Shown: in pieces, positions 384 to 56,098 of the stretch
Numbering within the stretch: the stretch's first letter is position 1
How the letters are laid out: every line of letters starts with the position of its first letter
Source of the DNA: an uncultured Clostridia bacterium
Lineage (GTDB): Bacteria; Aerophobota; Aerophobia; Aerophobales; B3-G15
Assembly: GCA_964482715.1 (NCBI GenBank)
Contig: CAYZYX010000002.1
Span: forward strand, 10,816-74,815
Reading direction: 5' to 3'
DNA: 64,000 bases
Position numbers and translations under genes: made by a program
The notes under the pieces: model-generated
The model's database searches: none
The model's input: only the letters and a program-made list of their open reading frames with translations
What the model was told of the DNA's origin: nothing

Positions 384-428
384 TTGAAGAGAGGATTTAC
401 AGGTAAAATTGTTATAGATAGAAATGTA

Positions 429-1040: not shown

Positions 1041-1051
1041 GGTATTTCTCC

Positions 1052-2131: not shown

Positions 2132-2132
2132 T

Positions 2133-3614: not shown

Positions 3615-3629
3615 CTTGTCCCCCTGTGA

Positions 3630-3965: not shown

Positions 3966-3967
3966 TT

Positions 3968-4953: not shown

Positions 4954-4969
4954 TTTTTATCCTCCAGGT

Positions 4970-6892
4970 TTACACCAGAAAAACCAGAAGTAAGATAACA
5001 AGACCTAAAAGAGACCAGGCAAGATAGGTATGAAGAACACCACTGTGTGCAAGAGAAGCTCCTTTACCAGCAAGTAAGACCACCCAGGATAAACCTCTCC
5101 ACACATACTCCACTAATCTATCAAGACCCAGGAGAAAGTAAGCAACCCAACGAGCAAATTTAAGCACCCCTTGATAAATGTCAAGACTTCCTTTTTCAAT
5201 AGCTTGGTAAAAACCCCTTAAACCGTAAAAATTCTTAATCGTATCGTAAAAATCAGCTCCTGATACCTTCATCTCCAGAGTAAACTTTTCTCCACCTATG
5301 TAACTTTCTGATTCTCTTAAACGTTTAGTCCTTCCAGCAAGGTAGATTATTATCCCCACAATTATTCCGATAATTATAAGTAAAGTAGCAACTCCCGGCT
5401 GCCACCACCCTATCCAGGCCTGAGGAGAAGAAACTTCAGGCACAGCTGAAGCAATGAAAAGTTTTATAGGGAATTGGTAAGCAAAAATCCCAAAAGCCAC
5501 ACATAAACCTGCCAGGATTAGAACAGGAATAGTCATACCCATTCCAGGCTCTTTTATTTTCATTTCCAGTGATTTTTGCTGAACTTCTTCGCTTTCCACT
5601 CCAAGAAAAATTCCATGAATTAACTTCATAAAACTTGCCAAAGTTAAGGCAGACCCAAACATAGCCGCCACCAGCCATATAATCCAGCTTCCTCCACCGG
5701 TTATCTTTCCTACTTCCACAACACCCTGGTAAATCATCCATTTAGAGAAAAAGCCGTTAAAAGGTGGAACACCAGAAATTGAAAGGGAAGCTATCAAAAC
5801 TCCTATAAAGGTAAGAGGCATAAACTTTGCCAGTCCCCCTAACCGGTCAATATCAGTAGTTTTTAAGTTATGTTCCACAGATCCTCCTCCAAGGAACAGG
5901 CAGGATTTATATATGGCATTATTCACCATATGGAATATACCCCCAGCAATTCCTACAGGAATTGCTGTCCCTATTCCCAGGACCATATAACCAACCTGGG
6001 ATATTGCATGGTAGGAAAGTAGTTTTTTTAGATCATGCTGAACTAAAGCCATAAATACTGCTGCTACGATAGTAACAGAGCCAATAAACATAAGAAGGAG
6101 AGAAAGAGGACCATTTGGTATTAATTTAAAGAAATCAAGGCATATTCTGGCCAAAAGATAAATTCCTAATAATTTATCCAGCGAAGCCGGCAAGAAGGCC
6201 ATGATTGGGGTTGGAACCTTCTCAGCAGCATCGGGTATCCATCCATGAAACGGCATCGCTCCCGCTTTTGCAATGGCTCCCATCATAAGCAGGACAAAAG
6301 CTGCTACAGCCAGTCCTGAGTTTATGGGAAGAGGTTGAAATCCACTCATATTAAGCGTCCCACTTAATTTGTAAAGGAAGAAAATACCAAGAATCAACGC
6401 AAAATCAGCAGAGCCAATTATAAAGAGGCCCTTGGTAGCAACTTTTGATGAACCCAGAGACAACATGCAATACAGAAGGATACCCAGCATACCCCAGAAA
6501 AGCAAAAATATAAGGAAGTTCGCTGCCAGAACCGCCCCAATGGCACAGGATGTGGTTAAGAGAAGGTAAAAATAATACTCCCTGGTCCGTCTTAAGCTGG
6601 ACATAAATTTTACAGAGAAAAGAGAGATAAGTAAGGAAAAAAGAGAGATAAAGAGAAGGATAAAAGAGGAAAATCGGTAACTCTGGAGACTAAAGTTTAT
6701 TCCCGGAAAGCTCAGCCAGGAATGATTAAAAGAAAGTTCACCGCAGCCAAAGATGAGGATGGACAAGATAAGAACCACCAGGCTTACCCCTACACTGATG
6801 ACTTCTTTAATCCTTTTTGTCGGAATTAAAAGACAGATGATCCCACCTATTAAAGGCAGTATAATTGGATAGAGAATTAAAGAAGAATTCAT
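4970..6892 (-). CDS. mrpA: MrpA/NuoL-like antiporter subunit (long family member)
   Basis: 640 aa, more than 16 predicted transmembrane helices, with the motif FHGWIPDAAEKVPTPIMAFLPASLDK matching the NuoL/MrpA core. Confidence 0.8.
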   Translation of the reverse strand: MNSSLILYPIILPLIGGIICLLIPTKRIKEVISVGVSLVVLILSILIFGCGELSFNHSWLSFPGINFSLQSYRFSSFILLFISLFSLLISLFSVKFMSSLRRTREYYFYLLLTTSCAIGAVLAANFLIFLLFWGMLGILLYCMLSLGSSKVATKGLFIIGSADFALILGIFFLYKLSGTLNMSGFQPLPINSGLAVAAFVLLMMGAIAKAGAMPFHGWIPDAAEKVPTPIMAFLPASLDKLLGIYLLARICLDFFKLIPNGPLSLLLMFIGSVTIVAAVFMALVQHDLKKLLSYHAISQVGYMVLGIGTAIPVGIAGGIFHMVNNAIYKSCLFLGGGSVEHNLKTTDIDRLGGLAKFMPLTFIGVLIASLSISGVPPFNGFFSKWMIYQGVVEVGKITGGGSWIIWLVAAMFGSALTLASFMKLIHGIFLGVESEEVQQKSLEMKIKEPGMGMTIPVLILAGLCVAFGIFAYQFPIKLFIASAVPEVSSPQAWIGWWQPGVATLLIIIGIIVGIIIYLAGRTKRLRESESYIGGEKFTLEMKVSGADFYDTIKNFYGLRGFYQAIEKGSLDIYQGVLKFARWVAYFLLGLDRLVEYVWRGLSWVVLLAGKGASLAHSGVLHTYLAWSLLGLVILLLVFLV

Positions 6893-6904
6893 AGTTCCTC
6901 CTCT

Positions 6905-8320
6905 TTATTTAAACATTTGAGCTACAGCTTGTGCTGGAAGTCCTAAAACCTGGCCTATAAAAATACCAATAGCAAGAGATATTATTCCAAGGAAAACTAC
7001 ACACCCCACAAGCAGTCTCCCTGGCTTAGTCTGTGAAGTTTTTACTTCTTTCCCCATGAATATCCCATTGAAGAGACGAAAAAGATAAAGTAAGGTGAAA
7101 ACAGCTGCTACTATAGCTAAAGTGGCAACCCAGAAATGACCCTCTTGCACGGTTCCCATTACAACCATGAGTTTGGCATAAAAGCCGCCAAAAGGTGGAA
7201 GACCAGCTATGGAAAAAACAGAAAACAGAAAGCCAATACCAAAAACTGGCGATGTTTTCATCAAACCACCAAGCCTGGTTATATCTCTTGTTCCATATCT
7301 TCTTTCAACCACCCCAGCACCAAGGAAAAGTCCCGCCTTGGCAATGGCATGAACCATGAAATATAAAAGTCCAGCCAGTATTCCTATTTCCTTAAGTAAG
7401 GCAAATCCAAGTAAAATATATCCCACCTGGGAGACAGTAGAGTAAGCAATGATTTTCTTAATATCCTTTTCCAGAAGAGCGGCACCAGCTCCAATGAGAG
7501 AGGAAATAACAGCCAGAGAGAGAATCCAATTCCAGGAAATTCCACCCATCCAGGCAAATATTCTCAAAAACCCCAGAAGACCGACTTCAACCTCCACTCC
7601 CGATAAAATAGCACTCATAGGAGAAGGAGCTACTGGATGGGCATCAGAAAGCCATGTGTGTATAGGGAGAATTGCTGATTTGGCAATAATTCCCAGAAAA
7701 ATCAGGAAAAAGATCACATTTAGGTTATCAGTGGTAAAACCTCTAAGTTGCACAATATCAAGTGTCCCACTTTTTACATAGAGAAGAGTAAATCCCATGA
7801 GCATAAAAGATGAACCTAAAAAGGTCATCAGAAAGGTCTTATCAGCAATCCAGACAATTCTTTCTTCTCTATAAAATCCCACCAGTCTCCAGGTTGCAAG
7901 AGCAGCTATTTCCCAGAAGATATAAAAGAGGATAAGGTTCCTGGAAAAAGAAATTCCCAGAAGTGAGGCTATCATAAGGGAAGTCATAAAGTAATATTCT
8001 CTCTGATTTTCATAATCTTTCATATAAGAGAGAGAATAAACAAGAGCAACAAGTCCTATAAAGGAAAAAATCAAAGCAAATACAAGACTTATTCCATCGG
8101 CAAACAGAGAAAAAGCAAAGTAGTTACCCGGGGTAGAGAGAATATCTACTTGCAAAACTTTTCCATTAAGAATAGATCCGATTAAGAACAGAAGAAAAAG
8201 GAAAGAAGCAGCAATAATACCTACTGACCACCAATCACGAACTTTTTTAGGGAAAACAAGACAAAGAAAAGAACCTATAAGAGGCACGAATATAGCTGCC
8301 ATAAGGAAAAAAGTTAACAT
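6905..8320 (-). CDS. Antiporter-like subunit (MrpD/NuoM/HyfD/HyfF family)
   Basis: 471 aa with the IHTWLSDAHPVAPSPMSAILSG motif. This is the third antiporter-like subunit of the operon. Its boundary with the hydrogenase large subunit is an ATG/TGA overlap. Confidence 0.8.
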   Translation of the reverse strand: MLTFFLMAAIFVPLIGSFLCLVFPKKVRDWWSVGIIAASFLFLLFLIGSILNGKVLQVDILSTPGNYFAFSLFADGISLVFALIFSFIGLVALVYSLSYMKDYENQREYYFMTSLMIASLLGISFSRNLILFYIFWEIAALATWRLVGFYREERIVWIADKTFLMTFLGSSFMLMGFTLLYVKSGTLDIVQLRGFTTDNLNVIFFLIFLGIIAKSAILPIHTWLSDAHPVAPSPMSAILSGVEVEVGLLGFLRIFAWMGGISWNWILSLAVISSLIGAGAALLEKDIKKIIAYSTVSQVGYILLGFALLKEIGILAGLLYFMVHAIAKAGLFLGAGVVERRYGTRDITRLGGLMKTSPVFGIGFLFSVFSIAGLPPFGGFYAKLMVVMGTVQEGHFWVATLAIVAAVFTLLYLFRLFNGIFMGKEVKTSQTKPGRLLVGCVVFLGIISLAIGIFIGQVLGLPAQAVAQMFK

Positions 8321-9537
8321 TTGTATCTGTCCTCCCTTTCAAAATAAGAACCCAGAAGTTTTCTTGTTTTTTCCTGAGAAAGTCTTATAAGATCACTTCC
8401 ATCCATTAGGACTTTACCAGACTTTTTATCGACAACTCTCATCATCCTTTCAGTGCAACAGTAACAAGGATCAATAGAGGCTAAAATCAATGCAGCATCG
8501 GCAACACTTTCACCGGGCACCGTAGCTTTACAGGTTGGAAGATTCACGTAAGTTGGAGCTCTTACCTTAAGCCTTACTGGAGTGTTAGAGCCATCAGAAC
8601 GGACATAGTGGAAAGTTTCTCCTCGTGGAGCTTCATGGTGACCTTTTCCTTCTCCAGGTGGCATCTCCTTAATTTTAACCGCAATATCCCCCTTGACTTT
8701 CTTTAATTTTTCAAGACATTGTCTTATTATCTTCACTGATTCAAGACATTCAAGAAGTCTCACCACAGTTTTAGCAAAAACATCTCCCTCTTTCTGAGTA
8801 ATTACATTCCATTCTACGAGGTCATAGGCTGCGTAAGGATCGTCTTTCCTTACGTCAATGGCCACTCCTGAACCTCGAGCAGTAGGACCCACGGCACAGT
8901 ATTTTATGGCATCCTCTTTAGTAAGGATTCCCACACCTTTAAGACGTGCAGCAAGAACAGGGTCATCAAGGGCGGCTTTGGTGATCATATCTACTTTTCT
9001 CTCTACTTCATCCAGAACTTTTAAGAAGTAAGGTATGTCCTCTTCTTTTATGTCTCTTCTAACACCTCCTGGTTTTAACATGGCATAATGATTTCTATTC
9101 CCAGTAACAAGTTCAAAAAGTTCTAAAACTGGCTCTCGGTATTTCCAAATCCACATCCACAGAGTGTTATAACCAATAAAGTGTCCAGCAAGACCCGCCC
9201 ATAAAAGATGAGAATGAATCCTTTCAAGTTCTCCAACGATACTCCTTATGTATTTTGCTCGCTCAGGTATCTCCACTCCGGCAAGATCTTCCTGAGCGTT
9301 ACAGTTGGCAATTGGATGTGATGTAGAACATATTCCACAGATCCTCTCTACCAGGAAAATAACTTGGTCCCAGGTCATTCGTTCACCAATCTTTTCAATA
9401 GCCCGGTGGTTATATCCAATATGGATGTCAATATCTAAAACCTTTTCCCCTTCGACTTCAAGTTCAAAATACTCCGGTTCTTCCTGTAAAGGATGATAGG
9501 GACCTATTGGAATTATAGTCTTTCGATTTCGACTCAT
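8314..9537 (-). CDS. Group-4 (energy-converting) [NiFe]-hydrogenase large subunit (NuoD/HycE/EchE/MbhL-like)
   Basis: N-terminal Ni-binding motif RICGICSTSH (RxCGxCxxxH) and C-terminal DPCYCCTER (DPCxxCxxR, the HycE type). A roughly 40-aa tail follows that would be removed by a HycI-type protease. 407 aa. Confidence 0.9.
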   Translation of the reverse strand: MSRNRKTIIPIGPYHPLQEEPEYFELEVEGEKVLDIDIHIGYNHRAIEKIGERMTWDQVIFLVERICGICSTSHPIANCNAQEDLAGVEIPERAKYIRSIVGELERIHSHLLWAGLAGHFIGYNTLWMWIWKYREPVLELFELVTGNRNHYAMLKPGGVRRDIKEEDIPYFLKVLDEVERKVDMITKAALDDPVLAARLKGVGILTKEDAIKYCAVGPTARGSGVAIDVRKDDPYAAYDLVEWNVITQKEGDVFAKTVVRLLECLESVKIIRQCLEKLKKVKGDIAVKIKEMPPGEGKGHHEAPRGETFHYVRSDGSNTPVRLKVRAPTYVNLPTCKATVPGESVADAALILASIDPCYCCTERMMRVVDKKSGKVLMDGSDLIRLSQEKTRKLLGSYFEREDRYKC

Positions 9538-10020
9538 TTATTTCTCCTGCTTCGTATTATCGGTAAACTGGGTGTCTCTAAAGTCACATCTTAAAGGATA
9601 CCAATCTTTAGGCCAGCTCTCGGCAGCAAGAAGAGGTCTCGGATCAGGGTGATTTAGAAATCTAACTCCTAAGAGATCTTGAATTTCTCTTTCAATAAAA
9701 ACAGCTCCCGTGATATAAGGAGTAATAGATTCTATCTCACATTTATCCTTGGGGACAAGAGTCTTTACTGTGACTACTTTTCCTCCATGGTGGTCAAAGG
9801 AAAAGTGATAAAGAATCTCAATTCCCCGGGGAGTATCAATTCCGGAAGCGGTGATAAATCTTGCCTTGCCTTTTTCAAAAAGATACCTTGCTACCGCAAC
9901 AATATCACCTTTTTTTATTGTAAAATAATGTCTATTAGCAGTCCTTTCCTCCCAGGAGATTATCTTTTCTTTTAAAGATTCCTTTATCTGAATAATAATA
10001 TCTTTCTCCCTTTTAGTCAT
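9538..10020 (-). CDS. NuoC/HycE-N/MbhK-like hydrogenase subunit (30 kDa complex-I subunit family)
   Basis: 160 aa, positioned between the small and large subunits as in Ech/Mbh/Hyc operons. Confidence 0.75.
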   Translation of the reverse strand: MTKREKDIIIQIKESLKEKIISWEERTANRHYFTIKKGDIVAVARYLFEKGKARFITASGIDTPRGIEILYHFSFDHHGGKVVTVKTLVPKDKCEIESITPYITGAVFIEREIQDLLGVRFLNHPDPRPLLAAESWPKDWYPLRCDFRDTQFTDNTKQEK

Positions 10021-10031
10021 CTGTTTTTCCT

Positions 10032-10472
10032 CTATTTTGAGTTAGAAGGTAATTTACCGTTAAGACTCTGGATAAGTTTTACCACACCATCAATTATTGC
10101 CTCGGGCTTTGGAGGACATCCAGGAATATAGGCACTTACAGGAATAACTTTATCGAAAGGTCCAGCCATATTATACCCTGTTCGAAATATACCTCCACTA
10201 CAAGCACAGCCTCCGACTGCCACTACCAGTTTTGGCTCAGGCATCTGTTCATAAACTCTCTTCACACGAGGTAAACACTTTTTATTGACTATTCCTGTTG
10301 CCAGAATAACATCAGCATGGCGAGCACTTCCAACCAGGACTATCCCGAATCTTTCCACATCAAATCTGGGAGTGAGTAAATCCAGTATTTCAATATCACA
10401 ATTATTGCAGGAACCTGCTGAGAGATGGTAAACCCACAGAGATTTCTTAAGAGAAAACTTGGCTAAACCCAT
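10032..10472 (-). CDS. Group-4 [NiFe]-hydrogenase small subunit (NuoB/HycG/MbhJ-like)
   Basis: CNNCDIE, VGGCACSGG and IPGCPPKPE motifs provide the four cysteines of the proximal [4Fe-4S] cluster in NuoB-type subunits. 146 aa. Confidence 0.85.
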   Translation of the reverse strand: MGLAKFSLKKSLWVYHLSAGSCNNCDIEILDLLTPRFDVERFGIVLVGSARHADVILATGIVNKKCLPRVKRVYEQMPEPKLVVAVGGCACSGGIFRTGYNMAGPFDKVIPVSAYIPGCPPKPEAIIDGVVKLIQSLNGKLPSNSK

Positions 10473-10510
10473 TTTTTTCTCCCTTTAGTTATATAAAAAA
10501 TTTAATAAAA

Positions 10511-11449
10511 TCATATGCCGAGCAGAGCCAGTATAAATCCGATTATTGCCAGAGGAAACATTCTAAGCCAGAAAAACTTAAGGGCCTGGTCTATTCTCAG
10601 ACGAGGATTGGTATTTTTAACAATAATAATCAAAAGTAGAATGACAAAATATTTGATTATTGACCAGAGAGCTTGTATCCCATCAAAACGCATTCCTCCA
10701 GCAAATATTGTAATTAAAAATACCGGGTAAGTGAAAAGCATCATAGCTTTTGTCAGCTTGAATATGCCGAGGGGTGGCCCGGAATACTCAATCAAAGGTC
10801 CAGCCATAATTTCCTGCTCTGCTTCAGGAATATCAAAGGGAACATAGGCAAGTTTTGCCTGGATACACACAAAAGTTACTATTAAAGCAATAAAAGAGGA
10901 GAGGTGATGGGTAAACATCATTCCATTATTTATCTGGTACAGGACAATAGAACCTATTTTTATATCTTTAATAGCAACAATTGGAGTAAAGATAGCTATA
11001 ATGAAGGGAAGTTCGTCAGCAAGCATGAGTTTCATCTCTCTACTTGCACCCAGGGAAGCAAGTGGATTTCCCGAGGCCGATCCTCCCAGTATGATGGCCA
11101 GAGAAGGAAGAACAGAAAGATAGAGAATAACAATTACATCCCCCAAAAATGATGTACCAGGATTAAGATTCATTTGCCAGAGAATAAGTGAAACAAGGGT
11201 AATTCCAACAAGACCCATTATTGGAGCCAATAGAAAACTAATTTTTCTTGCTCCAGCAGGAAGAATGGTTTCTTTTCCCATAAGTTTAAAGAAGTCCACA
11301 AAATTCTGATACCAGGGAGGCCCAACTCTCCACTGGAGACGCGCGGTAAGTTTTCTATCGATCCAGGCAACCAGAAGTCCTCCCACTGCAGTAAAAATAA
11401 AACCCGGGAAAACAATAAAAGAAACCAGAGCAAACAAAATCTCGTTCAT
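10511..11449 (-). CDS. NuoH/HycD/MbhM-like membrane subunit of the energy-converting hydrogenase
   Basis: 312 aa with 8 predicted transmembrane helices, in the NuoH position directly upstream of the NuoB-like gene. Confidence 0.75.
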   Translation of the reverse strand: MNEILFALVSFIVFPGFIFTAVGGLLVAWIDRKLTARLQWRVGPPWYQNFVDFFKLMGKETILPAGARKISFLLAPIMGLVGITLVSLILWQMNLNPGTSFLGDVIVILYLSVLPSLAIILGGSASGNPLASLGASREMKLMLADELPFIIAIFTPIVAIKDIKIGSIVLYQINNGMMFTHHLSSFIALIVTFVCIQAKLAYVPFDIPEAEQEIMAGPLIEYSGPPLGIFKLTKAMMLFTYPVFLITIFAGGMRFDGIQALWSIIKYFVILLLIIIVKNTNPRLRIDQALKFFWLRMFPLAIIGFILALLGI

Positions 11450-11952
11450 CCCTGTTTTTTCTCCTCTTGAGGTAGTTCTCTCTTCCAGGGTGTTACCTTA
11501 ACAAAAACCTCCCCGATTTTAAAGATATTATTTTCTTTATCTTCTACAAATTCCCCATATTTTATTGCCCCATCACCAGTTTGCACACATAGAGGCTGCT
11601 CACCTTCTTTCAATCTTCCCTGACAGAGATCACAGGTAAAAGTTAGAAAAGGGATTATCTCCATGTGAATTGTTCCAAAAGGGCAGGCTACTGCACAGGA
11701 CTTACAAGAGACACACAGACAATTATTTCTCCTGATAATTCCAGTTTCTTCCACTCTTTCCAGAGCTTCGTATCTACAGGCATTTATACAGGGGTGCTCT
11801 TCACACTTTCTACACACTATTTGAAAAGCGAGCCATTCTCTTAGTTGTAAGATCCCGTTATTGTTAAAATGATAAGGATAGCTACACTTAATATTTAATT
11901 TTTTCCAGTTCTGATTTATAAAATCCAGATCGATAAAGAGAGACTTATTCAA
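11446..11952 (-). CDS. Poly-[4Fe-4S] ferredoxin-like electron-transfer protein (HycB/HydN-like)
   Basis: 168 aa with at least 14 cysteines arranged in CxxCxxxxCxxxC, CxCxxCxxCxxxCP and CxxC clusters. It lies between the AsrB/HydG-like gene and the NuoH-like gene. Confidence 0.6.
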   Translation of the reverse strand: MNKSLFIDLDFINQNWKKLNIKCSYPYHFNNNGILQLREWLAFQIVCRKCEEHPCINACRYEALERVEETGIIRRNNCLCVSCKSCAVACPFGTIHMEIIPFLTFTCDLCQGRLKEGEQPLCVQTGDGAIKYGEFVEDKENNIFKIGEVFVKVTPWKRELPQEEKKQG

Positions 11953-11961
11953 CTTTTCCTC

Positions 11962-12795
11962 CTAATCCCAAATTGCTGGAATATCTTTGATTTGTTCGTA
12001 GGTAAAAACTGGTCCATCTCGACAAACCAAAAATCTCCCCAGTTGACAATGTCCACATTTGCCCACTCCACAGGACATATTCTTTTCCATTGAGAGATAT
12101 ATATTGGCAGGTTGATATCCCACATCGAGAAGTTTCAAGGTGGTGAATTTCATCATTATGGGTGGACCACAAACAACAACCGGATTTTCTTGAACATTGC
12201 TTATTTCTTCTTCTATTCCATCAAGAGTGGTAGTTACAAGTCCCACCTTTCCTTTCCATGATTCATCCCCTTTATCAACTGTTATACGAAAACTTACCTT
12301 TCCTCTGTACTTTTCTTGCCACTCATCCAGTATGGCCTTCTTATAAACAATATCCTGAGGTGTTCTTGCACCATAGCATAACACCACCTTCCTGTAACTT
12401 TCGAGGTTATGAGTGAGGGACAAAAAGAGTGATCTTAAAGGGGCAAGACCCACTCCTCCACCCACAATCAAGATTTCTTTGTTTTTCCACTCCGCAATAG
12501 GATATTCATTACCGAATGGCCCCCGAAGTCCAACTACATCGTTTTCCTTTAAGTTATGAAGAGCTGAGGTAATTTTTCCCACTCTCATTATGGTTAGTTC
12601 TATTTTCTCTTTTTCATAGGGAGAAGAGCTGGGAGTAAAGGGACCTTCACCTACCCCGGGAACTGTAAGTTGAACAAATTGACCAGCTTTAAATTCCAAA
12701 TGATTTTCTGGTTTGAGAACAAAAGTCTTTATTTGAGGTGTTTCTTCAATTACCTCAAGGATATTTGCTTTTACTGGTTGATAAGGATTTTTCAT
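11962..12795 (-). CDS. FAD/NAD(P)-binding oxidoreductase with C-terminal [2Fe-2S] (sulfhydrogenase gamma/HydG, AsrB, PyrK family)
   Basis: 277 aa. Has a flavin reductase fold motif (RVGKITSAL ... ILIVGGGVGLAP) and a C-terminal CGVGKCGHCQLG cluster typical of HydG/AsrB. Confidence 0.7.
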   Translation of the reverse strand: MKNPYQPVKANILEVIEETPQIKTFVLKPENHLEFKAGQFVQLTVPGVGEGPFTPSSSPYEKEKIELTIMRVGKITSALHNLKENDVVGLRGPFGNEYPIAEWKNKEILIVGGGVGLAPLRSLFLSLTHNLESYRKVVLCYGARTPQDIVYKKAILDEWQEKYRGKVSFRITVDKGDESWKGKVGLVTTTLDGIEEEISNVQENPVVVCGPPIMMKFTTLKLLDVGYQPANIYLSMEKNMSCGVGKCGHCQLGRFLVCRDGPVFTYEQIKDIPAIWD

Positions 12796-13859
12796 TTTTC
12801 CTGCCCTATCGGGATCTTTTTTTCTATAGCAAGGTCTCTAAATACCTCACGCATGTCTATCTTCCCGATACAAACAGATATACATCTGCCACAACCTGTA
12901 CAGGCATCAAGATTTATATTTTCAGGAAAAAAGTAAAATTTACAGAAAAGTCTGTTAGCAAACCTCTGATGTAGCCAAGGACGAGGATTTGCTCCTCCCG
13001 CCACTCTGGCAAATCCAGTTAGAAGACAGGCATCCCAGAGATAGTACCTCTGGTATTTATCTCCAGTTTTCACATCTGAAAGCAAAAAACATCTGCAAGT
13101 TGGACATATCTGATTACAGCCTCCACAATCAACACACTTTTCGCTGTATTTTAACCATACAGGCGAGTCATAGGTATCTTTTATTAGCTCCCGATAGGGA
13201 GTGTTTACTTTCAAATCTTTGTTAATTCTGTTAACCAGCTTTATTACTTTTTCTCTGTTTCTCTGTTTCTTACTTATAGCTTTTTCTTCCACATCGGTAA
13301 AAAACCCGGGATTTTTCTGAACCACCTCCTCTCCCTTACTTGAACCAACCTCCACTACATATCCTTCTTCCAGAGAGGACAGGTTAAGATCAAATCCTTC
13401 TTGAGGGTAAGGATTTCCTCCCACCAGTGTGCAAAAACAACTATTATCAGGTTCTTTGCAGTCACTACTTATAATTAGTGTATTTTCTCGAGCCTGAATA
13501 TAAAACGGATCTTTGTATTCCCTGCCAAATTCTTCCCCCTGGTAAACGCTATCTGTAATCTTTAAAGCTTTAAGATCACAGGCCTTTACTCCCAGCAGGA
13601 TTCTTTTTTCACTTTTTTTACTTGACTCTGAAGAGGAGACAAAGTATTCGGCAACTTTTCGATAGGCCGGCGTAAAAAAAGACTTTAAAGGATGAACAGC
13701 TCTTTTTGTATCCAGTACTATATTCCTGATATTTTCAGAATTTATCTTCTCGTATAAGAGAAATTCTTCCTTTTTTAAAGGCGCATAGACTTGATATTCC
13801 TGACCGAGTAACTCAACCCACTTAAAGAAATTATCTTTTGAGAGGAAATATTGCTTCAT
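12792..13859 (-). CDS. Iron-sulfur subunit (sulfhydrogenase beta/HydB, AsrA family)
   Basis: 355 aa with CVDCGGCNQICPTCRC and CTGCGRCISVC [4Fe-4S] motifs. Overlaps and precedes the HydG-like gene, as in hydBG/asrAB pairs. Confidence 0.6.
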   Translation of the reverse strand: MKQYFLSKDNFFKWVELLGQEYQVYAPLKKEEFLLYEKINSENIRNIVLDTKRAVHPLKSFFTPAYRKVAEYFVSSSESSKKSEKRILLGVKACDLKALKITDSVYQGEEFGREYKDPFYIQARENTLIISSDCKEPDNSCFCTLVGGNPYPQEGFDLNLSSLEEGYVVEVGSSKGEEVVQKNPGFFTDVEEKAISKKQRNREKVIKLVNRINKDLKVNTPYRELIKDTYDSPVWLKYSEKCVDCGGCNQICPTCRCFLLSDVKTGDKYQRYYLWDACLLTGFARVAGGANPRPWLHQRFANRLFCKFYFFPENINLDACTGCGRCISVCIGKIDMREVFRDLAIEKKIPIGQEK

Positions 13860-13943
13860 TTTCTTCCCTTCTTGTGAAAAATATCACAATTAATTTTAAA
13901 CCACAGAAACATTTTTGTCAAGTTATCAACCAGAACGAATCAA

Positions 13944-13959
13944 TCTGTGATTATTTTCA
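13944..13959. promoter_or_regulatory. CRP/FNR-family type palindrome TGTGA-N6-TCACA in the hydrogenase-operon promoter
   Basis: The + strand reads cTGTGAttatttTCACAa, a perfect inverted repeat. It is centred on the predicted +1 of the minus-strand promoter at 13963..13989. Confidence 0.45.
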
Positions 13960-13962
13960 CAA

Positions 13963-13989
13963 AATTATACCACAAAAAAATTTTATGTC
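13963..13989 (-). promoter_or_regulatory. Sigma-70-type promoter for the hydBG-fd-hydrogenase-mrp operon
   Basis: Minus strand carries TTGACA (13989..13984), a 16-nt spacer, then TGGTATAAT (extended -10, 13968..13963). It lies in the 145-nt gap between the DRTGG gene and the hydB-like gene. Confidence 0.55.
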
Positions 13990-14004
13990 AAAAAGTTCTG
14001 CAAA

Positions 14005-15099
14005 TTATATGCTGCTTATGATTTCCTCTATGGCCAGGTGATCTTCCACCAGTTCCGCTGCCTCTTTTACCTTGTCCTGGTCTATAGCCCGTATCTTGAC
14101 ACGCCGCTCATGCACTTTTTTGGTGGTAGTGTAGGTGTCATCTTCGGACAGGAGGATGGTAAATCTGCCTTCTTTCATGAGCCTTAAGATGCCTTTGTGT
14201 GGCAGGAGACCCCCTGTCAAGATCATCCCGGCTATTTCGTAATCTTCACCCATAACTCTTTCGCCGGCAATAACTGCAAGAATTATGTCTTCTCTGTCTC
14301 CTGGGACTATTATCAAACTGTGAGGAGCAAAGTGAGCCAGAGCATGGTAAGGTTCCATTGCTCCCACCAGAATGTTCACCACTCTTTTTTGTAGAAATTC
14401 CTCTCCATAAAGAATCTTGGCGTCTGTTGCTTCCATAATCTGTTCCATAGTTGGATAGGTGAGACACTCCTGGAAAGGTATTACTCCCAGAAGTTTTATC
14501 CCTTTTCTTTTTAGACCAAGTCCTGTTATACGCTTTATCTTATCGTATTTTTCAGGTAAGACTTTGTTTATTACCACTCCTATGAGCTCTACCTTTTCCT
14601 GGTCAAATAGAGCCTTGTTGATCATGATTTCGTCAATTGGTTTTCCTATTCCTCCTGTGGAGATTAGAAGAACTTTACTTCCCAGAAGTTTTGCCACCGA
14701 GGCATTGGATAGGTCAAACACCGCTCCAACGCCAGCATGACCGGTTCCTTCTATAAGCATTAATTTTTTATTTTTTGAGATACGCTCATAAGAGTCCCTT
14801 ATTATCTTAACGTATTTCTCCAGATTCTCCTCTTGAATGTATTTCTCGGTAAACCCCCTTTCCACAGTGATTGGATTCATATCTTTTAGATTGTCTGTAA
14901 TTCCACAGACATCCCGCATCAAAACTACATCTTCATCAACTTTATATCCTTCCTCCTCCACATAGTGTTGGCCAACCGGTTTCATAAAACCAACTTCAGG
15001 ATATTTCTCTCTTAAGACCTGCAAAAGTCCAAGAGAGATTGTAGATTTACCGTCGTTTTGTCTTGTTGCCGCAACAAACAGTTTTTTTGGATAATTCAT
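14005..15099 (-). CDS. DRTGG-domain protein with N-terminal CobQ/MinD-type nucleotide-binding fold (phosphotransacetylase N-terminal-domain-like)
   Basis: 364 aa. The architecture resembles the Pta N-terminal half (AAA_26 plus DRTGG). It is encoded directly after acsE. Confidence 0.5.
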   Translation of the reverse strand: MNYPKKLFVAATRQNDGKSTISLGLLQVLREKYPEVGFMKPVGQHYVEEEGYKVDEDVVLMRDVCGITDNLKDMNPITVERGFTEKYIQEENLEKYVKIIRDSYERISKNKKLMLIEGTGHAGVGAVFDLSNASVAKLLGSKVLLISTGGIGKPIDEIMINKALFDQEKVELIGVVINKVLPEKYDKIKRITGLGLKRKGIKLLGVIPFQECLTYPTMEQIMEATDAKILYGEEFLQKRVVNILVGAMEPYHALAHFAPHSLIIVPGDREDIILAVIAGERVMGEDYEIAGMILTGGLLPHKGILRLMKEGRFTILLSEDDTYTTTKKVHERRVKIRAIDQDKVKEAAELVEDHLAIEEIISSI

Positions 15100-15890
15100 T
15101 TTTTCTTACTTTCTTTGTAAGCTTTTATAAAGGAATCTGAATATATGTGTTTGCTAAGTATAACTTCAGCAGCAATGGCCGAATTTACCAGTTCCTCATC
15201 AGTAATATCACATATAGCTGCATCAAGTCCTGCACAGATACACATAACCAGGAAAATGCGATTTAAAAGCTTTACTTCCTGAGTCTTTGAGGAAATATTA
15301 CTAAGTCCCACAATTATGTGAGGAGGAGGACTGGAAAGAAGTGTAAATTGCCTTATTGCCTCTATCACATTTGCAGCCTGTTCCTGGAGAAATTTAAGAG
15401 GCATGGTTACAGGGTCAAGAAAAATCCTGTCTTCGGAAAGCCCCTTTTCTATTGCTTCTCCAAATATTGTAGCCCCCAGCTCTACTCTGCGATTAACATC
15501 CTGAGGTGCCCCTTTTTTGTCCATACATACTCCCACCACCGAGGCACCATATTCCACAGCAAGAGGAAGGATCTGATCGAGCTTTTCCTTATCGGCTGTT
15601 GTTGAGTTAATAAGAGCGGGTTTTTTGCAAACTTTAAGTGCTTCTTTTATGAAAGCAGGTTTGTTACTATCAATTGATATAGGTGTAGAGACTACTTCTT
15701 GAACAGTCTCAATCATCCAGATGAAATCCTCCACTTTGTTGGAAGCGGCACCCATATTAACATCAAGGTAATCTGCTCCAGCATCGGTTTGAACTTTGGC
15801 CCAATGTTGAATAATTGATTTATCTTTTTCTCGAATAGCCCTTTGAATATCTTTAAAGCCTCCATTTATTCTTTCTCCAACCAAGATCAT
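15096..15890 (-). CDS. acsE: Methyltetrahydrofolate:corrinoid/iron-sulfur protein methyltransferase (pterin-binding, AcsE)
   Basis: 264 aa pterin-binding (DHPS-like) barrel starting MILVGERINGGFKD. It sits in the acs cluster after acsD. Confidence 0.8.
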   Translation of the reverse strand: MILVGERINGGFKDIQRAIREKDKSIIQHWAKVQTDAGADYLDVNMGAASNKVEDFIWMIETVQEVVSTPISIDSNKPAFIKEALKVCKKPALINSTTADKEKLDQILPLAVEYGASVVGVCMDKKGAPQDVNRRVELGATIFGEAIEKGLSEDRIFLDPVTMPLKFLQEQAANVIEAIRQFTLLSSPPPHIIVGLSNISSKTQEVKLLNRIFLVMCICAGLDAAICDITDEELVNSAIAAEVILSKHIYSDSFIKAYKESKKK

Positions 15891-15905
15891 AGTTTCCCTC
15901 CAAAA

Positions 15906-16901
15906 TTAGCTTTTTCCCATCAATTTATCGATGTATGCTTTGGCTTCTTTAACTGCCATGGGGTGGCGCATAATGAGAATGTCTGCACCAGCCTGAAGGT
16001 AAACTACAGCAGTGGTCAACTCCCAGAGAGGCCCTCTTTTACGATGATCTCCCCATTCTGGAACGTTCTGTTCAGGTGCGATAGCCTCTTTTACTTTCCA
16101 AACTTCTTTTCCTATGTCTCCAAGGATAGGCATTGCCCACATTTTATCTCCTCCTAATCCAGCAATACGTCCTCTTTCCATAATAGAATAAACATATTCG
16201 ATTCCATATCCAAGAGCACCAGTAGTAGGATAAATAACAATATCCTCAGGACTTAACCCAGCATCAGTTGCCAGAATGTTGACCTGTTTGGCTATGTTTA
16301 TATCAACCGGGGATTCAGCAATTACTTTGTGTTTATCAGCCTGACACAAAGCTACAAGAGTTTTATAGTTATCTTCAGTGATGGTTCCCAGCAGACATCT
16401 TTCACCAGCTGCTGCCTGAGAACAGGCAGGGAATATTTCATTGTCTTTATCTTTATTTCCACAGCCCCATATAATAAGGGGAACACCTACTGAATTTAAA
16501 ACTCTTTTCACTGCCTCCTGAGCGTGATTAGCATCTTTGTTTTCTCCATCCGGGTCACAACCCTGTAGCCTTAAACAGATAAGGTCTGCCCCAAATTCTT
16601 CCACACATTTTTTGGCCCATTTTCCGGGATCGTCCCAGACATCAGAGAAATTTTCAGCCAGTGTCTCAGGCCAGTCAGAAGGAGCAATATCCCAAACTTC
16701 CATAGCTATTACCGGGCGATGAGGAATGTCTCCTTCAAAGTAAAGATAGGGAAGAGTAGTGGCTCCTCCAATTGTGATTGTATGAGACCTTGTTCCTCCT
16801 TCTTCTCTGGTAGCTCCAATGGTTACCGTATTAATAGGATTTGGCCATTTTTGTTTAACATCGGGTATCTGCATTTTTTTCCCTCCTTTTAAACCCCTCA
16901 T
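15906..16901 (-). CDS. acsD: Corrinoid iron-sulfur protein small subunit (CODH/ACS delta, AcsD/CdhD)
   Basis: 331 aa TIM-barrel-type protein with no Fe-S cysteine cluster, in the conserved acsC...acsD-acsE order. Confidence 0.8.
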   Translation of the reverse strand: MRGLKGGKKMQIPDVKQKWPNPINTVTIGATREEGGTRSHTITIGGATTLPYLYFEGDIPHRPVIAMEVWDIAPSDWPETLAENFSDVWDDPGKWAKKCVEEFGADLICLRLQGCDPDGENKDANHAQEAVKRVLNSVGVPLIIWGCGNKDKDNEIFPACSQAAAGERCLLGTITEDNYKTLVALCQADKHKVIAESPVDINIAKQVNILATDAGLSPEDIVIYPTTGALGYGIEYVYSIMERGRIAGLGGDKMWAMPILGDIGKEVWKVKEAIAPEQNVPEWGDHRKRGPLWELTTAVVYLQAGADILIMRHPMAVKEAKAYIDKLMGKS

Positions 16902-16945
16902 TTGCAGGAGACCTTCAGAGATTTATGGTTTTTTAACTATTCAAA

Positions 16946-17698
16946 CTACATATAGCCGGCCTTTTTCAGTATCTCTCTTATAGAAGAAAAAGCAGGCGAA
17001 TTTTGTGATAAATCAGTCAAAGATCGCCCATTCCAGGTATACTCTTCTAATTCAGGGTCATATTCTATCTTACCCAGGTAATTTCCAGAACTTTTAGCCA
17101 GCTTTTCCTTTTCTCTTTTAAACCTGTAGTTTCCCACAAGATATATGTTTTTATAACTAATTCCAACTTCAGAGGCGATTTTTTTAAGTCGCTCCATATT
17201 TTTTAAAGCTTTTACCGTAGGATCAATTATGACAAATATATCATCAACCTCAGAAACTATTCTTCTGTTAAGATGCTCCAGTCCCCCAGGTGAGTCAATA
17301 ATAGTGTATCTGTAACTTTCTGCCAGTTTGGGAAGAATACTCCTTAGGATATTGTTGGGCATGCAGTAGCAACCCTGAGTCCATTTTACCCCTATAGAAA
17401 TAAGGTCAAAATCTTCTGATTCATAGAGACAGGAGAAGTTCAGTAAGTATTCTATTTTTTCCGGTAAGCTTAGAGAATTTAATTCTTTGGTATTCTTCTT
17501 TTTTTGAATATCAAAAAGGATCTCCGAGATAGTCTTAATTTTTTCTTTTTCAAGATTTATTCCCAGCATGTCAGCCAGATTTTGATCTGAATCGGCATCA
17601 ATCAATAACGGATGTGAATCAAGACACAAAGCTGCCAGAGCTACAAAAGTAGTTTTACCTGTTCCCCCTCTTCCGGTACAGACAATTTTTCTACTCAT
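16946..17698 (-). CDS. CooC-type P-loop ATPase (second copy, AcsF-like Ni-insertion accessory protein)
   Basis: 250 aa with a deviant Walker A, CTGRGGTGKTT, in the MinD/CooC fold. Confidence 0.75.
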   Translation of the reverse strand: MSRKIVCTGRGGTGKTTFVALAALCLDSHPLLIDADSDQNLADMLGINLEKEKIKTISEILFDIQKKKNTKELNSLSLPEKIEYLLNFSCLYESEDFDLISIGVKWTQGCYCMPNNILRSILPKLAESYRYTIIDSPGGLEHLNRRIVSEVDDIFVIIDPTVKALKNMERLKKIASEVGISYKNIYLVGNYRFKREKEKLAKSSGNYLGKIEYDPELEEYTWNGRSLTDLSQNSPAFSSIREILKKAGYM

Positions 17699-19605
17699 TA
17701 TTTTATTTTCGCTGCCAGTGAGGGAAACTTTGTTATATCTGTGTGGGGTAAAAATTTTGCCGACATAAACTCATCCATATACAAAGGATAGGTGATTAAA
17801 TCAAAGTAGGTTATTCTTCTTGTTATTTCATAAGCCATTTCCAGTGCTTCCCAGGAGAAAAGAGCCATTTTGGCTCCCATAATTGAAGTGTTTCCTACAA
17901 ATTGGATTTTATCTCTATCTATATCAGGAATAAGACCTAAAAGAATAGCGTTTTCCTTATCAAGATAATTGCCAAACCCTCCAGCAATGTAAAGTCTATC
18001 AATATCAGAAAAAGTAAGATTTAAGCTGTTTAAGAGAATGTTGATTCCGGCAAATATTGCCGCTTTAGCTCTTAGAAGATTTTCAAGATCAGGTTGAGTT
18101 ACCACAATATCTTCCCCACGGTCAGTTTGATAAGCAGGGACAAGAAGAAATTCCAGTTCCCCATTTCTTTCCCTTACTCTTCTATCAGTTCCAGGTTGAA
18201 GTCGACCAGATCTGTCAATATATCCGGCCTTAAATAGTTCTGCTACAATGTCTATCAATCCGGATCCACATATACCTCTTGGTTTGACATCACCAATGGT
18301 AGTATACTTTATCTTTCCCTCCTCAGTTATATGAAGTCTCTCTATTGCTCCTTCACCTGCTCGCATTCCGTTTTTAACCCCACTTCCCTCAAAGGCCGGT
18401 CCTGCCGAAGCGGAACAGCAAACCATCCAATCCTTGTTTCCGATAACGATTTCTCCATTTGTTCCTATGTCTATTAACATAACAAGTTCACCGGCCTGGT
18501 AAATTCCTGTGGCCAGAATTCCGGCGGTAATGTCGGCACCTACCCAGGCAGCTATACTGGGCAGGCTATAGAGAAGTCCACGAGGGTTTATTCTTATTCC
18601 AACTTCGGCTGCCCTTATGGGGGGAGGAGCAGTACACACAGGTATGTAAGGCTCTTTTCTGATCTGAGAAGGATCAAGACCCAATAAGAAATGGATCATA
18701 GCTGTGTTACCGGCACAAACCACAGCCATTACATCATGTAGCCGTATATTGTTGCGGGAAATTAAAGTATTGATTAAATTGTTAATGTCCTCCACAATAG
18801 CCTCTCGAAGTCTATCTGTCCCTTTATGTTCGGCATATATTATCCTTCTTGTAACTTCCTCTCCATATACCCTCTGGGAATTATAGGTGGCTTCAGCATC
18901 CATGGTTTCTGAAGTATTTAGATTAACAAGATGAGCGACAACTGTAGAAGTTCCGACATCTACTGCTATGGCAAAATTTTTATCTTTTGTATTCCCCTTT
19001 TCTACCTGAATTACCTCAACTGTTCCTCCTCTAATTCCCAGAGTGGCAGTGACTTTCCAGTTATATTCTCTTAAAATATAAGGGATGGACCTTATTATTT
19101 TGAGTCCGGTTTGCATAATGGGAATTTCCTTTTTTCTTCTTATACCCCGGTAAAGTCGGAGGTGATCGCATACATTATCCTGCAAAGTGGGTGGAGGAAG
19201 TTCAAGATAGAGCTTCTGGATGAGAGGCTCATAGGTAAAATAGACTTTTTCCTTTAAAGGGGCATATAGGGCTCTAAACCTCTGGGCATCCTTATCTATA
19301 AGTATTTTTCCTTCCGCAGTTGATTCAGGAGGAACTTCCACAACCACATCACCAATTACTTCCGTCTGACAGGCAAGGACATATCCTTTTTTTATATCAT
19401 CACGGGAAAGAAGAGTTGTTGGCCTTGTTTTAACTTCACCCTCTCTCACAATCAATCGGCACTTACCACAGATTCCATCACCTCCACAGATGGAGTTGAT
19501 GTACACACCGGCCTTTTCTGCAGCTTCAAGTAACGTTATACCCTTTTCCACTTCAACTGTTTCTTTTTGAGGAAGAAAGGTTACCTTAATTTTTTCTTTT
19601 TTCAT
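17698..19605 (-). CDS. Reductive activator of the corrinoid protein (RACo-type: N-terminal [2Fe-2S] ferredoxin plus ASKHA ATPase)
   Basis: 635 aa. N-terminus carries the plant-type [2Fe-2S] motif CGGDGICGKC. The large C-terminal domain is sugar-kinase/Hsp70-like, with the same architecture as Carboxydothermus RACo. Confidence 0.75.
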   Translation of the reverse strand: MKKEKIKVTFLPQKETVEVEKGITLLEAAEKAGVYINSICGGDGICGKCRLIVREGEVKTRPTTLLSRDDIKKGYVLACQTEVIGDVVVEVPPESTAEGKILIDKDAQRFRALYAPLKEKVYFTYEPLIQKLYLELPPPTLQDNVCDHLRLYRGIRRKKEIPIMQTGLKIIRSIPYILREYNWKVTATLGIRGGTVEVIQVEKGNTKDKNFAIAVDVGTSTVVAHLVNLNTSETMDAEATYNSQRVYGEEVTRRIIYAEHKGTDRLREAIVEDINNLINTLISRNNIRLHDVMAVVCAGNTAMIHFLLGLDPSQIRKEPYIPVCTAPPPIRAAEVGIRINPRGLLYSLPSIAAWVGADITAGILATGIYQAGELVMLIDIGTNGEIVIGNKDWMVCCSASAGPAFEGSGVKNGMRAGEGAIERLHITEEGKIKYTTIGDVKPRGICGSGLIDIVAELFKAGYIDRSGRLQPGTDRRVRERNGELEFLLVPAYQTDRGEDIVVTQPDLENLLRAKAAIFAGINILLNSLNLTFSDIDRLYIAGGFGNYLDKENAILLGLIPDIDRDKIQFVGNTSIMGAKMALFSWEALEMAYEITRRITYFDLITYPLYMDEFMSAKFLPHTDITKFPSLAAKIK

Positions 19606-19618
19606 CTACTTTAGGTTG

Positions 19619-20968
19619 TTATTTATTTTTTACCTTCCACTCATTCTTGAGAAAACTGGGAATTCTGGCTGCTTCCTCGGGACCGACCAGTACTTTCCAG
19701 TTAAATTCTTCCTCCAGTTCCGCTCTAAAAACAGCCACCAAACCGGGAATGATAATAGTATTGTGGTTTACCTTTTCCTTTACCCTTTGCTCTTCAAGTG
19801 TTTTGGCTATCTTCTCAGGCGACCATTTGTCACCAGCATAAGCATTTAAAACTCCCAGTCCCTCCGTCTCCACAACAGAGATATAAGTTGGGACCTTACT
19901 ATTTTCTACTTCCGACTCCACTGTAAAGTAGGTAAGAGAAAAGTTTGTGGTAACAATGACCGGAGAATCAGGTGTTACCGCTCCTATTTCGTAGAGTTTG
20001 GCCTCTACAGCATTGGGAACCTGAGGATCTGTGTAGATGTTCTGTCTAATTGTTAGAAGAGGTAAAAGTTGCCATTTTTCCTTTGCTCTTAAAACCACGA
20101 TATTCGCATATTTACAGACATAAGTTGCAGCCTGAGCAATTTCTTGAAAAGGATTATTTTCATCCGTGAAAGCTATGGTCGGGTAGCCTAAGGGACGAAA
20201 GACTTTCTCTACCGCAAGTCTTCTTAGCCTGGTTAGTTCGGTTAGAGTTTTTCCCACTTTTCTTGTACCTGGATCAAGAACAAGGTCATTTACACCCAGA
20301 TTTTTGATTTTCTGAGTCAGATCAGCAAGCTCTTCCAGACTTTCAGCATAAACTGCAAGAGGACAGTTATAATTCTTAGCCAAGGAGGCAAATTTCTCAA
20401 AATTATCTCTCTTGGCTGCGTAAATAAGTGGTTTTTTATTTCCTACTGTTTTAAGAGCAGCTTCCACAACAGAGGGGTCATCTGAAACAAGAATAAGAGC
20501 AAGTCCCGTTTTCTCGCTAACCAGACCCGCCAGTTTTGCATAATCTTCAGGACCCTTTGAAGTATGTTTTAAAGCTACAAGATTTACTCCTATTTCTTCT
20601 CCAACTCTGGTAAATTTCAAACAAGCAATAGCATTTAGCTCCTGATTCAATTTTTCTTCTTCAAAATTGTCTTCCATTAGAATAGCAATGCCAGCCGGAT
20701 GATGGAATTTTTCTTTATGTCTGAAAAGGACTGTTTCCTGACCTACCTGAATCTTACTGCCATCAGTCCCAATAGTGACAAGCCTCATGGGAGGTGCTGA
20801 GGCCTCTGCAAGTTGCTTTTTGGCCTCTTCACTTACATGAGGACACTGATCAAGAGATACCTTTTTTGCCGCAAGTTGCATTGCAAAAGCCATACAGGTA
20901 GGGAAATTACAATCTCCACAGTTTGTTTTAGGTAAAAGTTTATAAATTTGAAGTCCGGTTAAGCCCAT
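19619..20968 (-). CDS. acsC: Corrinoid iron-sulfur protein large subunit (CODH/ACS gamma, AcsC/CdhE)
   Basis: 449 aa. N-terminal [4Fe-4S] motif CGDCNFPTCMAFAMQLA...CPHV, then TIM-barrel and B12-binding-like domains. Confidence 0.85.
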   Translation of the reverse strand: MGLTGLQIYKLLPKTNCGDCNFPTCMAFAMQLAAKKVSLDQCPHVSEEAKKQLAEASAPPMRLVTIGTDGSKIQVGQETVLFRHKEKFHHPAGIAILMEDNFEEEKLNQELNAIACLKFTRVGEEIGVNLVALKHTSKGPEDYAKLAGLVSEKTGLALILVSDDPSVVEAALKTVGNKKPLIYAAKRDNFEKFASLAKNYNCPLAVYAESLEELADLTQKIKNLGVNDLVLDPGTRKVGKTLTELTRLRRLAVEKVFRPLGYPTIAFTDENNPFQEIAQAATYVCKYANIVVLRAKEKWQLLPLLTIRQNIYTDPQVPNAVEAKLYEIGAVTPDSPVIVTTNFSLTYFTVESEVENSKVPTYISVVETEGLGVLNAYAGDKWSPEKIAKTLEEQRVKEKVNHNTIIIPGLVAVFRAELEEEFNWKVLVGPEEAARIPSFLKNEWKVKNK

Positions 20969-21016
20969 CTACTCCCTCCTTAAAATTAAATCAAGTTTAA
21001 ACAGATCCCCCTCATA

Positions 21017-23233: not shown

Positions 23234-23244
23234 GCACGACCTCC

Positions 23245-25944: not shown

Positions 25945-25957
25945 ACGGTTTCTCTTA

Positions 25958-26954: not shown

Positions 26955-26974
26955 GTCTTACCTCTTTTGGTTTT

Positions 26975-29651: not shown

Positions 29652-29676
29652 TTATCTTGATTCCTACAAGGTGCCT

Positions 29677-29692: not shown

Positions 29693-29701
29693 AATCATCG
29701 T

Positions 29702-56085: not shown

Positions 56086-56098
56086 CCTCCATCAAAAA

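Follow-up and report, generated by a model that had tools for sequence, protein, structure and literature searches.

Candidate Rex operators at the promoters of a carbonyl-branch operon and a membrane-bound hydrogenase operon in an uncultured Aerophobetes-like bacterium

The 64-kb stretch of DNA analysed here (the whole stretch is referred to as the window), from an uncultured Aerophobetes-like bacterium, carries an operon for carbon monoxide dehydrogenase/acetyl-CoA synthase (CODH/ACS), the carbonyl branch of the Wood-Ljungdahl pathway, and an operon for a membrane-bound [NiFe] hydrogenase, and palindromes of one type stand before both. Which regulator would read these palindromes, and which signal would it sense? 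The original prediction named a regulator of the CRP/FNR family, such as CooA, HcpR or CprK. Judging from the sequence, we consider it highly probable instead that three palindromes, termed here boxes A, B and C, are operators (Rex operator, or ROP, boxes) for the redox-sensing repressor Rex, a dimeric protein that binds its operator at low NADH/NAD+ and is released by NADH (PMC7306483, PMC13077300). Rex probably represses both operons until NADH/NAD+ rises, and this ratio, rather than carbon monoxide (CO) or a cyclic nucleotide, is most likely the signal sensed. The idea that both operons share one redox-responsive regulator is supported, with Rex as the predicted regulator; its assignment to the CRP/FNR family is not, as the full palindrome is that of a Rex operator, a rex gene is present on the contig, and rex recurs beside homologous operons.

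Three palindromes at predicted promoters

Of the intergenic sequences of the window, boxes A, B and C (Table 1) come closest to TTGTGAA-N4-TTCACAA, the published Rex operator (PMC6391272); the operator of Staphylococcus aureus is given as TTGTGAAW4TTCACAA (PMC2883068). The deviating TTGTTAA half-site of box C is a variant of Clostridiaceae and Thermoanaerobacterales (PMC12044746). Two of the three palindromes had been noticed previously. Box B does exist, but its core lies two bases away from 13944-13959, where it had been placed, and box C is found exactly as claimed, with one mismatch in its core. Box A, a third and better copy, had been overlooked. Moreover, the operon labels had been swapped: it is the hydrogenase operon that follows the 13.9-kb sites, and the cooC-cooS-acs operon that follows the site at 29.7 kb.

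Could such palindromes be chance inverted repeats, devoid of function? The intergenic DNA is AT-rich, and 16-mer palindromes with one mismatch are found four times where about two are expected. The exact core TGTGA-N6-TCACA, however, occurs twice in 64 kb against an expectation of 0.05, a count that none of 100 shuffles reached, and the TTGTGAA-N4-TTCACAA 18-mer with at most two mismatches occurs four times in the window against 0.57 expected, again equalled in none of 100 shuffles. Three of these four 18-mer matches fall in the intergenic 8% of the window. The fourth (30331-30348, TTTTGAAAGACTTGACAA) lies inside a small ferredoxin gene, lacks the GTG/CAC core and was taken as chance. Furthermore, the three boxes all abut -10 hexamers, they are invariant in diverged relatives, and such boxes are about 145-fold denser upstream of homologous operons (see below). 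A chance origin is thus excluded by statistics and conservation.

Promoters were predicted by a consensus scan, scored as matches out of 12 hexamer positions, which independently backs the promoter positions that had been proposed before. Each box lies over a predicted start or over the first 20 transcribed bases, and hence in the position of a repressor, an operator over the start site being the classic placement for such a protein. The predicted starts are near 13957, 13886 and 29695. At the hydrogenase operon, box A ends 12 nt upstream of the ATG of the hydB-like gene (13859), with the ribosome-binding site GAAGGGAAG at 13871-13863 lying between them, and the core of box C ends 25 nt before the ATG of cooC (29651). 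Two further elements of the original prediction hold, namely, that the sites are of one shared operator type, and that they stand over or just after the predicted +1 of the promoters of the carbonyl branch and of the energy-converting hydrogenase.

A strong divergent promoter is also predicted on the plus strand at 29738-29765 (TTGACA-16-TATATT with TG), box C being upstream of it. The small 2x[4Fe-4S] ferredoxin gene that it faces (30065-30379) begins about 300 nt away, which implies a long 5' leader.

Table 1. Coordinates of the boxes, predicted promoters, operons and rex gene (positions in the window unless a contig is named).
Feature	Position	Strand	Description
Box A	13872..13889		minus strand TTGTGATATTTTTCACAA, plus strand TTGTGAAAAATATCACAA; core TGTGAaaaataTCACA (perfect TGTGA-N6-TCACA) at 13873-13888; 1 mismatch to TTGTGAA-N4-TTCACAA
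Box B	13945..13962		minus strand TTGTGAAAATAATCACAG, plus strand CTGTGATTATTTTCACAA; core TGTGAttattttCACA at 13946-13961; 2 mismatches
Box C	29676..29693		minus strand TTGTTAAATATATCACAA, plus strand TTGTGATATATTTAACAA; core TGTGAtatattTAACA at 29677-29692; 2 mismatches; one TTGTTAA-variant half-site
P1 (predicted)	13964..13991	-	-35 TTGACA 13991-13986, spacer 16 nt, extended -10 TGgTATAAT (hexamer 13969-13964); 12/12; box B 1 nt after -10
P2 (predicted)	13893..13921	-	-35 TTGACA 13921-13916, spacer 17 nt, -10 TAAAAT 13898-13893; 11/12; box A 3 nt after -10
PcooC (predicted)	29702..29730	-	-35 TTGACA 29730-29725, spacer 17 nt, -10 TATACT 29707-29702; 11/12; box C 8 nt after -10
Target operon 1 (string 2)	429..13859	-	hydB/asrA-like Fe-S, hydG/asrB-like FAD/NAD-binding, 4Fe-4S protein, then Mbh/Mrp-type group-4 [NiFe] hydrogenase
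Target operon 2 (string 1)	14005..29651	-	cooC, cooS, cooF-like, nuoE, nuoF, hoxU-like, acsB, acsC, RACo, second cooC/acsF-type ATPase, acsD, acsE, DRTGG/AAA_26 protein
hycI 5' part	1..383	-	string continues past the window edge: hypF-hypC-hypD-hypE-rex-rnfD-rnfG
rex	L175:15787-16440		4.7-5.4 kb beyond window position 1, ~18.6 kb downstream of box A; 217-amino-acid protein

The rex gene, the conservation of the boxes and other regulators

We searched for rex by tblastn with Rex of Bacillus subtilis, a query whose sequence was verified against PDB 2VT2. No rex was found within the window or in the first Aerophobetes loci, nor in 80 CooS-related metagenome loci; within the window, a MarR protein and a sigma factor are the only regulators that could be recognised. 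Following the sequence leftwards out of the window from the last hydrogenase gene led to contig L175 (L-numbers are our labels for related loci and contigs compared with the window), which is 99.96% identical to window positions 1-11041. Past the window, this contig carries hycI-hypF-hypC-hypD-hypE; rex comes 19 nt downstream of hypE and is followed by rnfD and rnfG. The encoded protein has the Put_DNA-bind_N (PF06971) and CoA_binding (PF02629) domains, scores 253.7 bits against the NCBIfam Rex equivalog NF003993 (cut-off 217), and is 39% identical to Rex of B. subtilis. Its best solved relative is Rex of Thermus aquaticus (E = 3e-49), with QVRKDLaYFG and QVRKDLsYFG as the respective recognition segments; it aligns end to end with both of these proteins, and its GxGxxG motif reads GIGKLG.

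Neither a box nor a promoter better than chance nor a convincing terminator separates rex from the hyp genes. Given its place at the far end of the hydrogenase/hyp string, rex may share the control of that string, and it is possible, as we infer, that it is co-transcribed with the hydrogenase operon and hence autoregulated. On its other side, rex has only rnfD and rnfG behind it before convergent genes begin (L175:15787-17953, that is, 4.7-6.9 kb past window position 1); the remaining rnf subunits are not visible in this region, which leaves an odd, partial Rnf set beside the regulator.

Conservation of the boxes at the hydrogenase promoters was examined in five further lineages (L169, L170, L171, L172/L173 and L009), whose hydB-like proteins are 65-78% identical to that of the window. 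The acs-DRTGG-hydB synteny is the same in four of the five, only an upstream open reading frame of the size of DRTGG being seen in L009, and both promoter-plus-box units are kept in all of them. First, when the P2 units are aligned, three blocks stay unchanged, namely, the -35, the -10 and the box core GTGATA-TTTTCAC, while the spacers vary; the core of box A is invariant in six lineages of this range of identity. Second, a box with at most two mismatches directly follows the counterpart of P1 in every lineage, its central bases varying. Third, both units are retained in L169, in which about 270 nt (L169:9680-9950) are inserted between the P1/box B and the P2/box A units. A more distant Aerophobetes metagenome-assembled genome (MAG; L010, 51% identity) has one promoter, followed by a perfect TTGTGAAAAATTTCACAA.

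Two of these lineages deserve a further remark. The insert of L169 holds inverted copies of GTTCAACGTTCGAGGTTCGACGTT-like repeats, and thus may be a small mobile or repeat element. In L170, box A is symmetrically changed (L170:7275-7295), reading CGTGA...TCACG rather than TGTGA...TCACA, with box B still at one mismatch; this change could represent a weakened operator or a compensated palindrome.

At cooC, the sequence TTGTGAAAATAATTACAA is kept amid otherwise diverged upstream DNA in the four nearest orthologous operons whose upstream sequence is long enough (L089, L091, L092 and L093), whose orthology was checked and whose CooS proteins are 74-77% identical to that of the window. In L092, a weak promoter-like match directly precedes the box. 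The MAFFT alignment of these upstream regions is unreliable for the sequence from the window, where the box is placed differently relative to the promoter. In L093, moreover, about 250 additional nt separate cooC from its promoter (L093:2040-2350); they contain a GC-rich hairpin, GGGTAGCCGCACCC...GGGTGCGCAGGC...GCCTGCGACTACC, which resembles an element of the repetitive extragenic palindromic (REP) kind.

The link between boxes, rex and hydB-like operons extends across phyla, as revealed by a set of 80 loci with hydB-like homologues from many phyla. In this set, the stretches of up to 760 nt before the hydB-like genes, 54.6 kb altogether, hold 29 boxes with at most two mismatches, placed directly before the hydB-like gene or before the preceding rex, versus four in the other 1.09 Mb, one of which adjoins the rex gene of L082; it is from these counts that the approximately 145-fold difference in density comes. 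An unbiased count of perfect inverted repeats with 5-nt arms in the 250-nt upstream regions returned TTGTG-N8-CACAA (18 loci) and TGTGA-N6-TCACA (16 loci) as top motifs, and the exact core of the latter was found once in the 1.09-Mb control. Of the half-sites in the homologous loci, 78% have T at the unselected flanking position, and A/T makes up about 90% at the two central positions tabulated. Moreover, the gene immediately upstream, on the same strand, is rex itself in 12 of the 80 loci; these belong to Planctomycetia, Omnitrophota, Atribacterota, Latescibacterota and others. When Pfam domains were assigned to the 60 upstream neighbours that could be scored, the Rex architecture (PF06971 plus PF02629) was the commonest (12/60). 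No other transcription-factor gene repeatedly adjoins the homologous operons in other phyla. The order in L021, namely, rex-hydB-hydG-fer4-nuoH-nuoB-nuoC-nuoD(NiFe), indicates that the operon type is the same across phyla.

Some of the data weigh against the boxes being Rex operators. To begin with, rex has no box of its own, and a box is present in only 27 of the 80 hydB-like loci, some of the others having too little upstream sequence to judge. At cooC, one mismatch of box C falls inside the core (TAACA), and in the four closest relatives some 60 nt separate the box from the strongest predicted -35, upstream of which it stands, so that it does not cover +1. These two features make the mode of action at cooC less certain than at the hydrogenase promoters. 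No box was found upstream of cooC or cooS in more distant CooS loci (at most 72% identity), which means that conservation of the cooC box is narrow, being limited to the four closest lineages. We consider the site at cooC to be real, with a less constrained position, and are less sure of it than of the other two boxes. Finally, the TGTGA-N6-TCACA core by itself is common to CRP-type sites.

This last point bears directly on the CRP/FNR family, a member of which, encoded elsewhere in the genome and sensing CO, NO, redox state or a nucleotide as CooA, HcpR or CprK types do, might bind the palindromes. CooA is known to control cooS operons in response to CO (PMC7306483), and in an Omnitrophota MAG (L062:9482-9994) a 170-amino-acid protein weakly similar to the cyclic nucleotide-binding (cNMP-binding) domain of Escherichia coli CRP is encoded directly upstream of the hydB-like gene. 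L062 lacks a Rex box, however, and regulation there may therefore differ. The 16-bp core, for its part, is contained in the Rex operator too, and the conserved palindrome extends beyond it to (T)TTGTGAA...TTCACAA(A), with T and not A before TGTGA, as in the Rex operator; the CooA motif, given as TGTC-N8-GACA (PMC7306483), is absent here. Regarding candidate genes, none of Crp/Fnr type is encoded in the window or in the 9.6 kb past its left edge, and neither cNMP_binding nor HTH_Crp appears among the 25 most frequent of the 43 families at the 60 upstream neighbours, where Rex accounts for 12, whereas rex is on the same contig as the boxes. CRP linkage was also looked for, with E. coli CRP as the tblastn query on 168 loci as well as on the window, and was rejected, the single weak cNMP-domain match being that of the box-less L062. 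Altogether, we regard control by a CRP/FNR-family protein as unlikely.

The position of the boxes just downstream of the predicted +1 would also allow them to act as RNA, in the form of 5'-proximal hairpins with an effect on mRNA stability (stabilising it) or on translation. Boxes A and B can indeed form RNA hairpins of 6-7 bp, with -5.8 and -5.9 kcal/mol (z = -3.6 and -3.2), and the symmetric T-to-C and A-to-G change in box A of L170 preserves pairing, although it fits binding by a dimeric protein equally well. Box C, however, does not fold (-0.6 kcal/mol, z = +0.3), and in the relatives, transcripts from the strongest predicted promoter may not include the cooC box, which lies on its upstream side. 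Furthermore, it is the primary sequence, and not just the pairing, that is kept across phyla and before different genes, including rex. No terminator-like hairpins were found at the boxes. A role as RNA is accordingly very improbable in our view, and Rex operators remain the reading that we develop below.

Proposed control and the genes concerned

The scenario that we propose is as follows. At low NADH/NAD+, a Rex dimer would bind each of the 18-bp boxes, which come directly after the -10 and over the predicted starts of three sigma-70-type promoters, and bound Rex would block transcription of cooC-cooS-cooF-nuoEF-hoxU-acs and of hydBG with the Mbh/Mrp-type [NiFe] hydrogenase. As NADH accumulates, Rex would leave the DNA, and both electron-handling systems would be expressed together. 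Once opened, the operons would offer reducing equivalents a sink or a route of exchange. With rex at the end of the hydrogenase/hyp string, the circuit may include negative autoregulation.

The genes near the palindromes are all on the minus strand, as two gene strings separated by a gap of 145 nt. Within the first, cooS encodes the catalytic subunit of CODH (TIGR01702, 687 bits), the CooF-like product is a 4Fe-4S protein, and the final DRTGG/AAA_26 gene occupies 14005-15099. The second opens with the hydB-like gene (13859-12792), and its hydrogenase part comprises NuoH-, NuoB-, NuoC- and NuoD-like subunits together with Mrp antiporter subunits and a NuoI-like ferredoxin, the large subunit retaining both Ni-binding CxxC motifs. 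Modules of NAD(H) type are present in both target operons, namely, NuoE/NuoF/HoxU-like proteins in one and the HydG-like FAD/NAD-binding subunit in the other. The closest homologues with a named source are from Candidatus Aerophobetes MAGs, and near-identical contigs are known from several metagenome or sequencing-run samples (JGI, ENA, Logan).

Three observations on gene content were made along the way. First, the cooF-nuoE-nuoF-hoxU module (window 23245-26954, minus strand) sits between cooS and acsB, as it does in L091, L092 and L142, whereas in L090 and L093 it is missing and acsB directly follows cooS; this NAD(H)-type module thus appears to be a gained or lost cassette of the CODH/ACS operon. 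Second, a JGI contig (L001/L174) lacks window positions 4546-4653 and 5286-5336 (108 and 51 nt, in frame), being 100% identical elsewhere. These deletions shorten an MbhD/E-like protein from 174 to 138 amino acids and an antiporter-like subunit from 640 to 623, and the difference is either a population-level indel polymorphism or an assembly difference. Third, a second [NiFe] hydrogenase, with small and large subunits (window 54506-58532, minus strand), adjoins metV/metF-like genes. No Rex-like box was found upstream of it, even at four mismatches, which implies that the control proposed here is not common to all hydrogenases of this organism.

The hydrogenase operon itself is of interest. The HydB/HydG pair (AsrA/AsrB-like, FAD/NAD-binding) and the 4Fe-4S protein are joined in one operon with a group-4 [NiFe] core of NuoH/NuoB/NuoC/NuoD-like type, a gene order that recurs in L021 (L021:9356-15443), L012, L014 and L034, that is, in Planctomycetia, Atribacterota, Latescibacterota and an unclassified MAG (L034), and to which the Aerophobetes version adds Mrp antiporter subunits. 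This combination suggests an NAD(P)H-linked, ion-translocating hydrogenase family. It is tempting to speculate further, although we regard this as tentative and rather doubtful, that the Rex boxes mark a multi-phylum family of group-4 [NiFe] hydrogenases, often rex-headed, in which an Ech/Mbh-like core stands behind a HydB/HydG module binding FAD and NAD(P), and which would be NAD(P)H-coupled, ion-translocating and switched on by NADH/NAD+. In Aerophobetes, such a family would be enlarged with Mrp subunits and placed behind the CODH/ACS operon, with rex ending the same string of about 19 kb. We did not meet a description of this hydrogenase family in the literature, no search having been aimed at it.

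What would such control mean? In the speculative case just outlined, a self-limiting, NADH-sensing loop would co-regulate CO2 reduction and H2 metabolism in Aerophobetes. Rex control as proposed here would in itself tie the carbonyl branch of the Wood-Ljungdahl pathway to a membrane-bound hydrogenase, a concrete link that can be tested, in an uncultured phylum of the subseafloor, where regulation is otherwise only guessed; a literature search on Aerophobetes and redox-sensing returned nothing. It also replaces a plausible but probably wrong assignment, a CO-sensing regulator of the CRP/FNR family, with a supported one, the NADH-sensing Rex. In addition, the linkage of rex and Rex boxes to the HydBG-plus-group-4 hydrogenase operon across many candidate phyla helps to predict its electron carrier, NAD(P)H. 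The mechanism is textbook Rex biology and will not surprise the specialist; what is new is its predicted occurrence in an uncultured Aerophobetes-like bacterium.

Relation to known Rex systems

The closest precedent is the Rex/ROP system of Streptomyces coelicolor, T. aquaticus, B. subtilis and S. aureus, which has the same 18-bp palindrome over core promoters and a regulator of the same architecture, with a winged helix and a Rossmann fold, and whose targets are likewise NAD(H)-linked redox enzymes. The system described here differs in its uncultured, Aerophobetes-like host and in having two tandem promoter-operator units at the hydrogenase operon. It also differs in the location of rex, which is at the 3' end of the string of target genes and without an operator of its own.

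Rex-type boxes have been predicted at operons of related content. In operons for Ni-CODH and energy-converting hydrogenase (ECH), they are placed 31-37 bp upstream of cooC (PMC13077300), and in Calderihabitans maritimus they precede cooS2-ech1 and hyd-3b (PMC7306483). Like these predicted cooCSF Ni-CODH/ECH systems of Parageobacillus and C. maritimus (PMC13077300, PMC7306483), ours has a Rex-type box in front of cooC, at a distance of a few tens of bp, and a predicted redox-dependent control that CODH shares with the hydrogenase. Unlike them, cooC-cooS here heads a CODH/ACS (Wood-Ljungdahl) operon with a NuoEF-HoxU module, the hydrogenase forms a separate downstream operon with two boxes of its own, and there is no CooA-type TGTC-N8-GACA site.

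The Rex regulons of Thermoanaerobacterales and Clostridia (ech-hyp, asrABC, hfs and adhE, with TTGTTAA-N4-TTAACAA) offer a third comparison, boxes having been predicted upstream of ech-hyp and asrABC in Thermoanaerobacterium saccharolyticum (PMC5886521). In common with these regulons, an energy-converting [NiFe] hydrogenase and AsrA/AsrB-type genes are predicted targets here, and box C has a TTGTTAA half-site. However, boxes A and B are of the TTGTGAA form, and the AsrA/AsrB-like genes open the hydrogenase operon itself. As for the operators of CRP/FNR regulators, they share with our boxes the 5-bp arms and the 6-bp spacing of the core, whereas the extended arms and flanks found here follow Rex instead.

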